DNA of 64,000 bases from Leptolyngbyaceae cyanobacterium (GCA_965263355.1 CBDHHL010000032.1:832001-896000), one strand, 5' to 3'. Shown: positions 15,983 through 50,539, counted from the stretch's first letter. Numbers and translations: made by a program. The notes: a model not told the origin generated them from the letters alone.

Positions 15983-16330
15983 TCAAATGTTCGATTTTTC
16001 GTCCTGCGCAAAATACTTTACCAGCACCTTCATCAACTCCCCAGGCTTACACTGCAAAGGTCGCTCAGGAGTAGGCGCAGGCATAAAATCAGTCCACTCA
16101 AAAACTTCAGCAAACCCACACATATGCAATGTCTGCACAATCGCCTGTACAGCCTGCTTAGAACCAATCACCAGAAGTTTAACCGGCTCCTTATCCTCCT
16201 TAGGAAAATTCCCAAGCCTCTGCTTAATTTCAATACTGACCACCACATCAGCCTTACCACCAGCAACCTCTGAACCAACGAAAGCACTAGGATTTCCCAC
16301 AACACACCCTCCAAAATAATCCAGCACCAC
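15983..16330 (-). CDS. Small hypothetical protein, paralog of 49370-49615
   Basis: Shares V..IGS..AVQ....LH...A....W...P...E.M..L.K with 49370-49615; GGAGG RBS suggests a GTG start near 16300. Confidence 0.7.
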   Translation of the reverse strand: MVLDYFGGCVVGNPSAFVGSEVAGGKADVVVSIEIKQRLGNFPKEDKEPVKLLVIGSKQAVQAIVQTLHMCGFAEVFEWTDFMPAPTPERPLQCKPGELMKVLVKYFAQDEKSNI

Positions 16331-16400: not shown

Positions 16401-16634
16401 ATGGGCAAAGCAGGCGATACCCTGAAACAGGTACTAGATAAATACGACATCACCCAATACCGCTTCGCAGCAACGATGGGGGTTGAGCGCACCAGCGTCG
16501 CCCGTTGGTGTAAAGGCAAAATCGACCCAACTGGCGACTCAATCATCGAAATCGTTCGCACCCTAAAAATCCTCAATCAGGATGCGGCCACTGAGTTCGT
16601 AACTACATACCTGGGCAGCGAATTAGATCCGTGA
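16401..16634 (+). CDS. Xre/Cro-like HTH regulator
   Basis: LKQVLDKYDITQYRFAATMGVERTSVARWCKGKIDP. Confidence 0.85.
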   Translation: MGKAGDTLKQVLDKYDITQYRFAATMGVERTSVARWCKGKIDPTGDSIIEIVRTLKILNQDAATEFVTTYLGSELDP

Positions 16635-21712: not shown

Positions 21713-21740
21713 GTAGGGACATTGCATGCAATGCCCCTAC
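21713..21740. repeat. GTAG-type REP-like palindrome (copy 1)
   Basis: GTAGGGACATTGCATGCAATGCCCCTAC; near-identical copy at 49632-49659. Confidence 0.8.
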
Positions 21741-45118: not shown

Positions 45119-48100
45119 GTGTCCCAATCTTTTTTTCTCGGTCGTACTCAAGAGCAAGATCAGTTTCGGCGGGTGCTGGAGCAATATGTGCCGCTGTCAT
45201 GGGCGCAGCGGCAGTTGCCAACCCTTTCGCGTCCCTTTACTAAGGTCCGTAGTCTGCCGGAGCACCCCTATATTTTCTTAGTGTACGGCCCAGGTGGTAT
45301 GGGTAAGACTACGTTGACCAAACGATTAACTTGGCTCGCGGATAAAGAATTTAAGCACCAATTTCAAACTGTTTTTCTAGACTGGGAGCGCGAACAAGGG
45401 CTAGAGCCACGGTTGCGGGAGGGATATGACAATATTCAGCCAGAAACAATACTTGATATTCTGCACAAGCAACTGGAAAAACAGCTTTCTAATTATACGG
45501 GTAAGACCTATAGTACAGCCCGTGAGAAGTTACGCGAAGTTGAAAGCAAGGTGGAAAAGGCACTACAAAGTCAGACACCAGAGCAGGGGCTGAATAATGA
45601 TGTACTGAAGTTAGGTGGAAAAGGCATTGCCTGGATTATTCGCCAGCAGACAGGGCTAAATCTGGTCAAACCAGAGGATATTGAACGGGTTCTTAAAGTA
45701 AGTGCTGAGGGACTACACCAGATAACACGATTTGTTGATAAAGCATTAGATTCAGAGGAGCGCATCTTATATCAACAACCCCATGAGCAGCTGGCTGAGA
45801 CCTTGGGGAAAGAAATTCAGAAAATTAGTCAGCGGCAATCACTTGTATTATTTCTGGATACTTACGAAATTGTAGATCGCCGAGCCTGTGACTATACGCT
45901 GCGTCAGGTGATCCGCACAGCTGGTAATAGAGCGATTTGGGTAATTTCAGGGCGTTCAAATTTAGCAGAGAGTGGGCGACGGGGAGATCGACCATTTAAT
46001 GGCTACAGTCGTGATTTTTCAGGAGATTGTTTATCGGTCAATAAACTAAACGAGTTTAGTCGTCAGGAGGTGAATGACTATTTTAACCATATGGTGCCAG
46101 ATAAACCTCTAGATGACGACCAAGCTCAAGCAGTTGCTGACTTTAGCCAAGGCATCCCATTTGTGGTGGATAGAGCGGCTGTGATGTATCGTGAAGGCAA
46201 GCCAATTGAAGAGATCGTTGAACCTGTTACCGCTGAGCTAGGAAAGACGACTGCCCGAGATGCAGTGATTCGAGCGACGTGTGAGCGTTTTTTAGTGCAT
46301 TGCTTTGAGCAATCAGATGAGGCAAATAAACAAAACGATCTGCGGGTAATTTATGCCTTAGCGATGATGCGTCGTCCCTATGCGGAGCTGCTGCGGGAGA
46401 TGGTAGACGAGGCGAACAGCCTGGAAAATCGACTGGAAATATTGCAGGAACGGTATGGATTTTTAGAAGTGGAAGAAATTCATCTAGATGAAAAGCTGGC
46501 TAACTTTTTGCGAGATTATTTGCGTCAAGAGGTCCGACGAACTGATCCATTAGTACAAGCAATTAATGAGACTGCCATCGCATGGTTAGATTTAAAGCTT
46601 GAGTCTACCAGTAAAGGCATTACGGATACGGCTGATTTATATACGGAAGAAAGTTTGTCCGAGCTGATGCTGGATCGGGTGCATCATGCATTTTGGCAAG
46701 GAGAAGAGACCTTTTGGCGTTATTTTGTACCTCGATTTATTGAGGCGTGGCAGTACAGCCAGACTTGGGCGCAGCGGGCACTAGAGGTGGCAGATACATT
46801 TGCGCTAAACAATAAAGATGGTCAAAAAAGGCTGCAGTGGATGGCGGCTGTCTTAAACAAGGAAACACGATTAGAGGCGACACCTAAATTATTAGATGAC
46901 CTGGTAAGAGTAGAACGCCGTCAATGGTTGCAGCCTGAACACAGTCTAATTTTGCAGTTTCAGCACGGGCGTTTGTATTACTTGCAAGATCAAAATCAGC
47001 TTGCTTTGAACAGCTACTCTAGTCTAGAAAATAAGTTGTTGTCAGACACCCAACAATTGAAACAAGATTTAGCTGAGGCACTCTATTTTCTTAGTGGAGA
47101 ATTTATTTGGCCGAATGGGGCTACAGACGCCGTTTATTCAGAACCTGGAGAAATTGCTATTCGAAACTCATTAGCATTGCATCCTAAGCCAATGAGTTCT
47201 TATTACTATCGTCAGGCAGCAGTTTTACATAGTGCAAAACGCTATACAGAGGCAGTTTCAAGTTTTAAACAAGCGATTCAAATTGATCCATCTGATGCAC
47301 AAAGCTACTATGGTTTGGGTGTAACGTACAACGCTCAGAAACGCTATGACGACGCGATCGCAAGTTACCAGAAAGCGATTGAGATAGACCCGTCCTATGC
47401 AACGGCTCACAACAATTTGGGGAGTACGTACAACGATCAGAAACGCTATGACGACGCGATCGCAAGTTACCAGAAAGCGATTGAGATAGACCCGTCCGAT
47501 GCAATGGCTCACAACAATTTGGGGAATACGTACAACGATCAGAAACGCTATGACGACGCGATCGCAAGTTACCAGAAAGCGATTGAGCTAGACCCGTCCT
47601 ATGCAACGGCTCACAACAATTTGGGGATTACGTACAACGCTCAGAAACGCTATGACGACGCGATCGCAAGTTACCAGAAAGCGATTGAGATAGACCCGTC
47701 CGATGCAAAGGCTCACTACAATTTGGGGATTACGTACAAAGCTCAGAAACGCTATGACGACGCGATCGCAAGTTACCAGAAAGCGATTGAGATAGACCCG
47801 TCCGATGCAATGGCTCACAACAATTTGGGGATTACGTACAATGATCAGAAACGCTATGACGACGCGATCGCAAGTTACCAGAAAGCGATTGAGCTAGACC
47901 CGTCCGATGCAAAGGCTCACAACAATTTGGGGATACGTACAACGCTCAGAAACGCTATGACGACGCGATCGCAAGTTACCAGAAAGCGATTGAGATAGAC
48001 CCGTCCGATGCAACGGCTCACAACAATTTGGGGATTACGTACAACGCTCAGAAACGCTATGACGACGCGATCGCAAGTTACCAGAAAGCGATTGAGATAG

Positions 48101-48947
48101 ACCCGTCCGATGCAACGGCTCACAACAATTTGGGGATTACGTACAACGCTCAGAAACGCTATGACGACGCGATCGCAAGTTACCAGAAAGCGATTGAGAT
48201 AGACCCGTCCGATGCAACGGCTCACAACAATTTGGGGAGTACGTATGAAGACGCTATGACGAAGCGATCGCTACCAAAAATTGAAGCTTATTGATTGAGC
48301 TCCCTATGCCTATCCTCATCGTAATTTAGGGGATGTTTATAAGGCACTTGAACAATATGAGGATGCGATCTCAAGTTACCAGAAAGCGATTGACTTAGAC
48401 CCTGACAAGCCTATTTTGAACTAGAATTAGGTAATGTATTGACCTATCACGGACAGTATGAGGATGCGATCTCAAGCTACCAAAAAGCCATTGAACTCAA
48501 TCCAGAATATGATTATGCCCATGATCGACTCGGCTGGGTTTCCTGTTAGATAATCAACTAGACAAGGCTAAACAAAGCTTTTGAGAAAGCTATTGAGATA
48601 GATGACAACAGATGTTAGTTCAAATTCAACTTAGTTATTTACCTACGACAAAACAATAACAATCTTGAAAAAGCACATGAACTATGGCAACAAGGCTTAG
48701 AATTAGTTGATGAAGATAGAGATTGGATAAAGCTCGTTCCCGTGCACTTTTACACATTTATCCTAGGCAAAAACAGAACAAGGCATGACTCATATGCAAT
48801 CCTAATAGTGCTAAGGTAGACATTGCAGCCTTAGAAAATGCCCTTGGCGATGCAGAAATCCTTGCCACCTGTCCTCAGCCCCCTGACCGCATCCAAGATA
48901 TGATTACCCTCCTCCGCAATGCCATCGCCCAACCATCAACCCAATAA
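45119..48947 (+). pseudogene. STAND-like P-loop ATPase + TPR protein, frameshifted in this sequence (true pseudogene or assembly error)
   Basis: FLGR, Walker A GPGGMGKT, Walker B LVLFLDTYE, GIP; 1-nt loss at ~47934 (GGATACG vs GGATTACG), more indels after 48240; broken TPR coding continues to ..LLRNAIAQPSTQ* at 48947. Confidence 0.8.
47324..48250 (+). repeat. Nine near-identical 102-bp TPR-coding tandem repeats plus a decayed tenth
   Basis: Units start ~47324, 47426, 47528, 47630, 47732, 47834, 47935, 48037, 48139; each has a HIP1 GCGATCGC. Confidence 0.95.
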
Positions 48948-49101
48948 AACGATGAATGTCGAATTCATTGGGTTGATCAAAGCACAGGCAACAGCAAAGA
49001 TTTTGGTAGGGTAGCAACCCAACCTACACATACTGCATTCTAAATTCCCATCTGTTAAAATTACCGATTACCCCTCCCCCCAACATTTCACAATTTGTTT
49101 C

Positions 49102-49130
49102 TTGACTCCCTAGATCAACTGCTCTACCGT
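49102..49130 (+). promoter_or_regulatory. Sense promoter of the leader/small-protein unit
   Basis: TTGACT-N17-TACCGT. Confidence 0.55.
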
Positions 49131-49159
49131 AAACAACAGGTCCACGAGACCTTCAGAAC

Positions 49160-49244
49160 TCAACCCCTTAGCGCTATCGACAGGTGCTACCAACACCCAC
49201 CGACAGCTAACCTAGCAAGCTGAACCAGCCAGCTTGAAGGCTAA
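49160..49244 (-). ncRNA. Candidate cis-antisense RNA (~80 nt, two hairpins)
   Basis: Minus-strand 14-bp stem GCUGUCGGUGGGUG/CACCUGUCGAUAGC, complete only through four G-U pairs; second stem CAAGCUG/CAGCUUG; promoter TTGCAA-N16-TACATT at 49277-49250. Confidence 0.55.
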
Positions 49245-49369
49245 TGTTAAATGTACCTTAGCCCTTCCAGTTTGCAACCCTTGCAGGACGGCTAAGGCTT
49301 GAGTTTTGGTCCATAGGCCAGGTAAACCATTACCTGGCCACCTATCCACCTACAAAAACGACCAAAACC

Positions 49370-49615
49370 ATGTTCCAAGACAACACCCAGGGCGCAGACG
49401 CGGCCAACATCCCCCCTGCCGCCAATACTCTCCCCGACCACCAGTTTGACATCGTCCGACACACCCTGTTCGGCACCCTAGACGCCGTCCAAAACACCAT
49501 CAAACTCCTCCACAAACTCAACTACGCCGACCCCAACGACTGGAGCCGCCCCCTACCCACCGGACGCGTCAACGAAGTCATGGCCATCTTGACCAAACGC
49601 GTCCGCGTAGACTAA
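49370..49615 (+). CDS. Small hypothetical protein, paralog of 15983-16330
   Basis: VRHTLFGTLDAVQNTIKLLHKLNYADPNDWSRPLP..EVMAILTK. Confidence 0.75.
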   Translation: MFQDNTQGADAANIPPAANTLPDHQFDIVRHTLFGTLDAVQNTIKLLHKLNYADPNDWSRPLPTGRVNEVMAILTKRVRVD

Positions 49616-49628
49616 TTCAAGACCTATC

Positions 49629-49662
49629 CCAGTAGGGACATTGCCTGCAATGCCCCTACTGG
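49629..49662. repeat. GTAG-type REP-like palindrome (copy 2)
   Basis: CCAGTAGGGACATTGC-CT-GCAATGCCCCTACTGG. Confidence 0.8.
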
Positions 49663-49738
49663 CAAACCCGTGGCATAGCCCCAGTAGCACGCCTATCCCT
49701 CACATTCGCCCAGATCGCTCTGAACGATTACCTGAGGC

Positions 49739-50539
49739 CTAAATCGCCTGCACAATTAAATCAACCGCACGCGGCTTACCAAAGGCAGCATGGTATCGGG
49801 TATAGTCCCCCGGCTGCTCGATGGTGCCCAGTTCTCGGTAAGTACCGCCAGCCCCTTCAATCAGCGCCTTAGTCGCAGCAATATCCCAAATCTTGAGGTT
49901 ATATTCGACCATTACCGCAACAGCACCGCGAATAGCGAGACCATGGGCATAAACATCGTAGTAAATGCGAGAATGAGGGTGAAACCGCAGAACCTTCCAT
50001 AAAACATCCGTATTGCCCCCGCGCTCAAACGTCGCTGGACAGTTGGTGGCAATAATATCCGTCGATGTTAGGGCAGGGCTTTCAAGATCGAGCAGTTGAA
50101 TCTGTTTACCATTGCGATAAGTGCCACAGGGTAAGCCCCCACGAAAACTCTCGCCCAATACCGGAAAATCAATCCACCCGAGGACAGGGTTACCTTGGTA
50201 CAACAGACCGATAATGGTGCCAAAGGTGGGAATCCGATTGATGAGATTTTGCGTGCCATCAATCGGATCAATGGTCCAAACAAACTCGGCGTCGCCATTT
50301 TCAGTGCCGTATTCTTCGCCAATGATGCCATGGTGCGGATAATGTTTACGGATTAGCGTCCGGGCTAATTCTTCGCACTTGAGGTCAACTTCACTGACTG
50401 GGGTGTTGTCCGCTTTGATTTGGGTACTAAAAGAGTTATCTTGCCACAACGTCAGAATCAGCTCACGGGTCTGGCTAAGCAGATCATCACCGACGCTCAG
50501 CAACTCCTGGTAGAAATCGTTTCCTGGTTGGTCCTTCAT
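49739..50539 (-). CDS. Inositol monophosphatase family (HisN-like)
   Basis: KADNTPVSEVD, GIIGEEYG, WTIDPIDGT, WDIAA. Confidence 0.85.
   Translation of the reverse strand: MKDQPGNDFYQELLSVGDDLLSQTRELILTLWQDNSFSTQIKADNTPVSEVDLKCEELARTLIRKHYPHHGIIGEEYGTENGDAEFVWTIDPIDGTQNLINRIPTFGTIIGLLYQGNPVLGWIDFPVLGESFRGGLPCGTYRNGKQIQLLDLESPALTSTDIIATNCPATFERGGNTDVLWKVLRFHPHSRIYYDVYAHGLAIRGAVAVMVEYNLKIWDIAATKALIEGAGGTYRELGTIEQPGDYTRYHAAFGKPRAVDLIVQAI

Follow-up and report, generated by a model that had tools for sequence, protein, structure and literature searches.

A multicopy cyanobacterial cassette with a candidate antisense-gated, two-state leader upstream of a small-protein gene

We analysed a locus at positions 49102-49615 of a 64,000-nucleotide (nt) stretch of DNA from a Leptolyngbyaceae cyanobacterium (GCA_965263355.1 CBDHHL010000032.1:832001-896000), hereafter called the window. 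A self-contained cassette of about 580 base pairs (bp), with many copies in marine Leptolyngbyaceae and fewer in other cyanobacteria, is represented here by one copy; in it, a promoter and a leader of about 230 nt precede an open reading frame (ORF) for an 81-residue protein (49370-49615, plus strand). We lean towards the interpretation that this is an antisense-gated bistable leader controlling the 81-residue protein. Comparison of the copies showed predicted helices, competing pairings over the start region, a constraint on two helices (P2 and P3) that is specific to the minus strand, and loops that differ from copy to copy. All features listed in a first-pass annotation of this DNA were found at their positions, and most of them are conserved in the comparative data.

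Among paralogs of a single genome, DNA homology begins near -336 and ends near +245, counted from the ATG, a range that reaches from about 65 nt before the -35 hexamer to the stop codon; outside it, nothing is shared. Protein-profile matches numbered 89, 67, 18, 37, and 21 in five related genomes of 4.8-8.1 megabases, and few of the matches listed contain internal stops. Covariance model R1 for the leader detected one copy in the window (157 bits) and at least 81, 14, 24, and 24 in four of the five genomes, with only 150 candidates scored per genome; these matches sit directly upstream of family ORFs. Among 151 sampled cyanobacterial genomes, R1 was found in 11 and the protein profile in 16, and all 11 genomes with R1 carry the protein. 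Cultured strains that carry the family include Leptolyngbya sp. PCC 7375, Leptolyngbya sp. Heron Island J, Leptolyngbya cf. ectocarpi LEGE 11479, and Leptothoe spongobia TAU-MAC 1115. Very diverged leaders were followed in 12 of 16 cases by an ORF recognised by eye as a family member; one precedes an unrelated ORF, one runs into a contig end, and two are without an ATG ORF of at least 50 residues. More distant protein relatives occur without the structured leader.

Taken singly, the signals of the locus are inconspicuous. A generic consensus scan reported neither the sense promoter nor the promoter-like motif on the opposite strand and gave a single promoter-like site between 48500 and 50000, where 2.0 ± 1.5 would be expected by shuffling; both promoters are unremarkable by consensus alone. 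Rfam was searched with 48000-50500 at E-values up to 10, a check that the first-pass annotation had proposed, and no family was returned in the leader region; the two matches obtained lie elsewhere (48172-48250 and 50207-50253) and far below the gathering thresholds. With these null results, the case rests on comparison with other copies, and the features stand above chance because the sense promoter, the helices, and the anti-start pairing recur in dozens of diverged copies. The alignments used comprised 35 leaders (A1), 37 leaders (A3, core), and 91 distinct leaders (A6).

The sense promoter consists of TTGACT (49102-49107) and TACCGT (49125-49130) separated by 17 nt, and the arrangement TTGAC, 17-18 nt, TAnnnT was found upstream of 67 of the 72 leaders. 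The predicted 5' end of the messenger RNA (mRNA) is formed by a small hairpin, P0 (AGGTC-CACGA-GACCT, 49138-49152, plus strand), which is present with differing sequences in the copies. Behind it, five helices (P1b, P2, P3, P4, and P5) meet at a junction with invariant bases, which is closed by P1a. On the plus strand, P1a pairs CAGAACTCA (49154-49162) with 49300-49308 and P1b pairs CCTTAGC (49166-49172) with 49291-49297, so that their 3' arms together occupy 49291-49308; between them lie the hairpins P2 (49173-49207), P3 (49216-49236), P4 (49239-49263, plus strand), and P5 (49265-49288, plus strand). The window copy folded alone gave the same junction. RNAalifold, run unaided, recovered P1a, P2, P3, and P5 with 18 of 31 pairs compensated. 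For the full leader structure, 87.8% of cells were paired, compared with 27-47% when partners were slid, and 26 of 46 pairs changed on both sides. Compensatory cells numbered 151, compared with 63.6 ± 7.6 in shuffles, and none of 500 shuffles reached 151. In P1a, 98.8% of cells were paired and both partners had changed in 4 of 9 pairs; the values for P1b were 91.3% and 4 of 7. An alternative topology, in which 49257-49263 pairs with 49290-49296 and replaces both P4 and P1b, is also well paired. The sense promoter and long structured leader of the first-pass annotation are supported by the comparison of copies.

The second pairing of interest is a sequestor, or anti-start, helix. Its 5' arm, GTTTTGGTC (49303-49311, plus strand), is complementary to GACCAAAAC (49360-49368, plus strand), which stops 1 nt before the ATG at 49370; the enclosed hairpin P6 (49316-49339, plus strand) is variable or absent in other copies. 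The helix pairs the bases directly before the ATG and, in most clades, also the GGAG ribosome-binding motif. This start-occluding pairing had been predicted from the single sequence and was retained by comparison: 85.7% of cells were paired, compared with 23-54% with a slid partner, and both partners had changed in 4 of 12 pairs, such as C-G to U-A in 10 of 35 leaders. The 5' arm of the sequestor and the 3' arm of P1a share six bases, so the leader has two exclusive states. When either helix was enforced, the folds differed by a mean of 0.32 kcal/mol, with P1a the better fold in 23 of the 35 leaders and the sequestor in the other 12; the two states are therefore predicted by modelling to be nearly isoenergetic. 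When pairing was forbidden in columns 32-106 (P2 to the 5' arm of P4), 33 of the 35 leaders, which had previously mostly adopted P1a, adopted the sequestor fold, and a block over a wider antisense footprint gave this fold in 34 of 35.

The evidence for an RNA from the opposite strand comes from wobble pairs. In the strand test that we used, a G·U pair on one strand corresponds to an A·C mismatch on the opposite strand. The stem at 49173-49207 has 10 Watson-Crick pairs and four A·C or C·A mismatches on the plus strand and 14 pairs, four of them G·U, on the minus strand, which confirmed the earlier observation that this 14-bp stem is complete only on the minus strand. Across the 91 distinct leaders, read on the plus strand, P1a, P1b, P4, and P5 contained 259 G·U and 52 A·C cells, versus 5 G·U and 149 A·C cells in P2 and P3. 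By helix, the G·U/A·C counts were 69/4 (P1a), 2/113 (P2a and P2b), 3/36 (P3), 50/17 (P4), and 43/14 (P5). With one leader per cluster at 80% identity (33 leaders), they were 77/31 for P1, P4, and P5 versus 1/60 for P2 and P3. The asymmetry was first seen in 35 leaders and was repeated in 40 paralogs of one genome. Fold stability gave the same division: the minus-strand fold was the more stable one for P2 in 69 of 73 copies (by a mean of 5.8 kcal/mol) and for P3 in 54 of 73, and the plus-strand fold for P4 in 56 of 73 and for P5 in 62 of 73. P0 showed no such preference (34 versus 33 of 67). Homolog alignment, proposed at the outset together with a covariation test as a check, gave conserved helices of which P2 and P3 are constrained on the minus strand and P1, P4, and P5 on the plus strand.

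The two stems that lie downstream of a promoter-like motif on the minus strand (49250-49277) are precisely P2 and P3. The motif consists of TTGCAA (49277-49272), a spacer of 16 nt, and TACATT (49255-49250). Its -10-like hexamer lies in the A+T-rich loop of P4, and its -35-like hexamer is the loop of P5, TTTGCA, read on the minus strand. Relaxed criteria located the motif in all 35 leaders, always at one aligned place. The consensus was matched at 8 or more of 12 positions by 54 of 73 copies (29% of shuffles) and at 9 or more by 21 of 73 (6% of shuffles). The convergent promoter-like motif of the first-pass annotation has a fixed position; it is weak by consensus and was missed by the generic scan. 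From the motif and the strand-specific wobble pattern, we infer transcription of the minus strand. The predicted antisense RNA (49138-49243, minus strand) would start near 49243, cover P3' and P2', the complements of P3 and P2, and end somewhere between about 49172 and 49138. The comparative evidence supports the earlier suggestion of a minus-strand RNA spanning both stems (49173-49243). Pairing of 49166-49172 with 49240-49246 was considered as a closing helix of this RNA and was rejected, with 73% of cells paired and 52 plus-strand G·U cells.

The loops of P2 and P3 behave differently from the stems. In one genome, loop entropy was 1.30 bits per column for P2 and 1.56 for P3, the highest of all regions, versus 0.04-0.93 for stem segments. 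The P2/P3 loop pair was unique in 40 of 40 copies of one genome, in which the P2 loop alone had 35 distinct versions, whereas only 18 (P2) and 23 (P3) distinct stems were found. Unique loop pairs are expected if an antisense RNA meets its own mRNA by loop-loop contacts and ignores the other copies.

These observations can be joined in the following model. A sigma-70-type promoter would give an mRNA that begins with P0 and continues into the five-helix junction closed by P1a. With P1a formed, the start region would be free; with the sequestor formed, it would be occluded. A short RNA from the opposite strand would start in the P4 loop, fold as the complements of P3 and P2, contact the matching loops of its own mRNA, and pair across P2-P3. 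This duplex would break the junction, the 3' arm of P1a would join the sequestor, and translation of the 81-residue protein would be turned off; the sense/antisense duplex may also be cleaved. Repression is the direction of the antisense effect suggested by the folding calculations. The first-pass annotation had drawn on SymR, which lies opposite the start of its target. This parallel is not supported here, as a gap of more than 120 nt separates the predicted antisense RNA from the ATG downstream, and leader refolding, not cover of the start, would be its mode of action. Coupling through a leader ORF in the manner of hok/mok was rejected. A leader ORF of 22 codons with a TTG start is present (49234-49302, plus strand), its stop codon lying within the conserved P1a arm, but it is not conserved: of the 12 closest leaders, 6 have the same start and stop, a seventh has an upstream extension, and in the other 5 the ORF is either shortened to 8 codons or ends at another stop; the remaining 23 of the 35 leaders do not have it.

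A wider reading, which we offer tentatively and rate as possible rather than probable, is that the locus represents an undescribed cyanobacterial cassette with structured RNAs on both strands, a bistable junction leader on one and a two-hairpin antisense RNA on the other, whose copies, about 40-90 in some marine Leptolyngbyaceae and each with its own pair of recognition loops, would form an array of separately gated small effectors or toxins. If this were true, possible roles of the array would be in defence, in stabilising the genome, or in growth arrest induced by stress. We know of no type I toxin-antitoxin family with such a copy scale and design.

Several points weigh against an antisense-gated leader. 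The cells counted in the wobble test come from related sequences and are not independent, so Fisher p-values overstate independence and are indicative only. The antisense promoter is weak by consensus, with 8 of 12 matches in the window and fewer than 8 of 12 in 19 of 73 copies. Within the P4 hairpin, 69 of 89 copies have TAnnnT on the minus strand (the other 20 have CATAAT or CACAAT) and 65 of 89 have it on the plus strand; with such similar counts, the -10 hexamer alone carries no strand information. A conserved antisense terminator, sought by eye after P2' and P0', was not found; P0 is without strand preference, and the generic scan scored its minus-strand reading (49152-49138) as terminator-like. 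Both the predicted mRNA and the predicted antisense RNA are known from sequence alone, and the modelled effect of antisense binding comes only from thermodynamics. Riboswitches, too, classically have a junction whose closing helix competes with an anti-start helix. Finally, the features of a type I toxin, namely a hydrophobic stretch, a toxin family, or a toxin fold, were not found in the 81-residue protein.

The riboswitch-like layout raises the question of a purely cis-acting sensor, in which an aptamer or a site for the encoded protein or another factor would stabilise P1a and open the start, no antisense RNA would act, and the signals on the minus strand would be incidental. As in riboswitches, the structure of the leader is conserved, with covariation, and exclusive pairings lie over the start region. 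Its conserved multi-helix junction with invariant bases, the closing helix that competes with the anti-start helix, and the -10-like hexamer on the plus strand as well would all suit a sensor, and near-isoenergetic states are expected of a switch poised for an effector. We nevertheless regard such a sensor as unlikely. It leaves unexplained that P2 and P3, read on the plus strand, carry A·C rather than G·U (149 versus 5 cells) with the other helices reversed, and that no part of the leader is more variable than the P2 and P3 loops, which each copy has in a version of its own; conservation is the norm for aptamer loops in contact with a ligand or one another. The leader had no match in Rfam even at E-values up to 10, the gene context of the cassettes contained no metabolic genes pointing to a ligand, and tens of copies before one small protein family are, to our knowledge, unlike known riboswitch regulons. 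A minus-strand RNA may also be real and not repress its own mRNA. The strand constraint shows only that a folded minus-strand RNA matters, and such an RNA could protect or activate the mRNA, interfere with transcription, given the facing promoters at a distance of about 120 bp, or act mainly in trans on other copies or other targets. It would carry the same UUGAGUUCUG-type sequence as the 3' arm of P1a and could therefore also touch the CCAGAAC before the ATG of any copy. Modelled occupation of P2-P3 occluding the start in 33 of 35 leaders speaks for repression, and the unique loop pair of each copy favours cognate over general action, so that we consider these other roles distinctly unlikely.

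High copy number, sharp unit boundaries, the many copies at contig ends, and two database proteins in which a family match adjoins the end of an unrelated domain are what a mobile or selfish element might leave behind, its structured RNA aiding spread and its small protein being a mobility factor. This seems to us very improbable. Terminal repeats were not seen at the unit edges, transposase, reverse transcriptase, and integrase are absent inside the unit, and no relative was found in viral contigs. The paralogs are old ones: most share 81-93% DNA identity or have none that is detectable outside the ORF. Moreover, different species have the same cassette sites occupied, as judged from shared flanks (window/L001, L002/L006, L003/L009, L004/L005, and L017/L019), which argues against recent transposition. 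An antisense-gated leader remains the interpretation that we prefer.

We then considered the protein. The 81-residue ORF is a genuine gene, as 319 of 320 candidates matched at E ≤ 0.001, and a profile search matched 621 clusters at 50% identity. Family members are all small, and the named ones are cyanobacterial "hypothetical proteins". No Pfam family was matched at E ≤ 0.1 by the protein or by 32 distant members, no family in PADLOC or PHROGs by the protein, and no sequence of a solved structure in a profile search at E-values up to 10. A match to PatB/AcyB/McaB (TIGR04220, NCBIfam) at E 0.038, with 13.7 bits against a cut-off of 55 and in 1 of 46 members, was taken as chance. In the AlphaFold model, residues 1-24, a tail that varies among copies, are disordered and are followed by a conserved beta-alpha-beta core comprising a strand (25-35), a helix (37-49), a conserved loop with the motif YA(E/D)PNDWS, and a second strand (70-80); the predicted local distance difference test (pLDDT) score was 88-96 in the core blocks and 78 on average. 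No fold could be assigned with Foldseek (best E 0.58) or VIA-align (best Z 4.7, to generic beta-alpha-beta proteins such as dodecin, MinE, CutA1, and ACT domains), and matches in the ESM Atlas were only to unnamed cyanobacterial clusters. A search for longer or fused forms of the family found two proteins, neither with a Pfam domain. In two database proteins (P0154 and P0186), the family match forms the C-terminal part and is preceded by a nucleotidyltransferase or an integrase SAM-like domain; such fusions may be artefacts of gene calling or may stem from insertion of cassettes in other genes.

By its model, the protein is soluble and unlike Hok or SymE, and the absence of Pfam families and fold matches agrees with the first-pass annotation on this point. 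Type I toxins are typically small hydrophobic membrane peptides of under about 60 residues, and no hydrophobic stretch was found in the 81-residue sequence. Soluble exceptions among type I toxins are SymE and RalR. The protein might be toxic.

The surroundings of the cassette differ from copy to copy, ranging from housekeeping genes to toxin-antitoxin and nuclease genes. In the window, the upstream edge of the repeated unit is 49034-49101 (plus strand), a stretch that the upstream alignment showed to be kept among close paralogs and that carries an imperfect inverted repeat, AAATTGTG..CACAATTT in relatives. The upstream neighbour of the 81-residue ORF, at 45119-48550 (plus strand), encodes a P-loop ATPase with a long TPR array (959-residue ORF). 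The array runs on in other frames (48028-48294 and 48439-48549), through either frameshifts in the repeats or assembly errors. A TPR-repeat gene lies immediately upstream on the same strand at 8 of the 35 loci with an upstream ORF (L001, L004, L005, L010, L014, L016, L021, and L024), as well as in the window; some of these are orthologous sites. At L035, a NACHT-type helical domain is encoded upstream of the cassette. Past the stop codon of the 81-residue ORF, and outside the repeated cassette, a locus-specific palindrome of 34 nt that matches itself (49629-49662, plus strand) is possibly the end of the transcript. A 28-nt copy of it, 96% identical, is located about 28 kilobases away at 21713-21740, and the two may belong to a small dispersed repeat.

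The window also contains a distant relative of the protein, a 115-residue ORF at 15983-16330 (minus strand; hhalign probability 95%), which is without the structured leader and stands head to head with an XRE-type helix-turn-helix gene (16401-16634, plus strand). A family relative on a Scytonema plasmid (L084) shows the same head-to-head arrangement with a helix-turn-helix gene. In genome G149, which is without the leader RNA, three family members (L104, L105, and L109) each follow two conserved unknown genes, for proteins of about 175 and about 90 residues, in an apparent three-gene operon; the protein of about 175 residues matches the C-terminal part of phrog_2554, of unknown function. Some copies appear damaged. 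L009:1501-1743 has a stop at codon 3 and looks broken, as does L038:1436-1650, from a long-read bin, which has an N-terminal frameshift, and TAA occurs in three of the matches listed for genome G002. At two loci of one metagenome bin (L007:1-150 and L013:1-140), foreign sequence with identical final 17 bases replaces the leader and the contigs end there, which looks like the landing of an insertion sequence.

Type I toxin-antitoxin systems were known only in Proteobacteria, Firmicutes, and Tenericutes before a first cyanobacterial candidate was proposed in 2025, according to the report of that candidate (PMC12390103). In our literature searches on cyanobacterial type I toxin-antitoxin systems and antisense RNA, on family expansion in Leptothoe and Leptolyngbya, and on the antisense transcriptome of PCC 7375, a description of this family or its leader was not found. 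The locus would add an RNA motif new to Rfam, a protein family new to Pfam, and antisense action at a distance that flips a riboswitch-like leader. The roughly 90 natural variants in one genome constitute a data set on how cross-talk between sense and antisense RNAs is avoided, and, if the protein is toxic or regulatory, hundreds of "hypothetical" cyanobacterial genes would gain a function. The strand-specific wobble test can be applied generally to detect antisense RNAs from sequence alone.

By analogy, the logic of the cassette is closest to that of multicopy type I systems with structured mRNAs, such as hok/sok, Ibs/Sib, and AapA/IsoA. In hok/sok/mok of plasmid R1, the antisense promoter lies inside the leader and faces the mRNA promoter, the antisense RNA is complementary to the leader and not to the toxin start, long-range pairings of the mRNA set access to the start, and several copies exist per genome. 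The cassette shares the predicted antisense promoter within the leader, the long-range pairings that would gate the start, and the presence of several copies. It differs in having no conserved overlapping leader ORF, a five-helix junction as its leader, a copy number that is ten-fold higher, and a protein that is predicted to be soluble and does not belong to Hok/Gef (no Pfam family). Ibs/Sib and AapA/IsoA encode very short hydrophobic peptides, and their antisense RNAs overlap the coding region or the start. As is proposed for the cassette, several paralogous sense/antisense pairs in one genome are told apart by short variable stretches and mRNA folding controls translation, whereas the cassette encodes a predicted soluble folded domain of 81 residues and its putative antisense footprint is upstream of the ATG and more than 120 nt away from it. 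With SymE/SymR, the cassette has in common a soluble protein rather than a membrane peptide, toxicity being known for SymE; SymR, unlike the predicted antisense RNA, covers the symE start region, and the cassette protein has no SymE family match.

The proposed first cyanobacterial type I system, and the only such candidate found in our literature searches, is MsoT1/MsoA1 of Microcystis aeruginosa; MsoT1 has 63 residues, an isoelectric point of 11, and two predicted membrane helices, and MsoA1 has its pairing site at the 3' end of the coding region and in the 3' untranslated region (PMC12390103). Both that system and ours are cyanobacterial candidates with a cis-encoded two-hairpin antisense RNA, which is predicted in our case; they are unrelated in sequence and layout. 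Translational riboswitches have a conserved junction in which the 3' strand of the P1 helix competes with an anti-start helix. The cassette resembles them in its junction closed by P1 and in the competition of the P1 3' strand with the anti-start helix, and is distinguished by a leader without an Rfam match, hypervariable loops, and two helices constrained on the opposite strand. Taken together, the cassette appears to be a variant of antisense-controlled small-protein modules, differing from the known ones in its soluble folded domain, the lack of a conserved leader ORF, antisense action that would take place at a distance, and its copy number.

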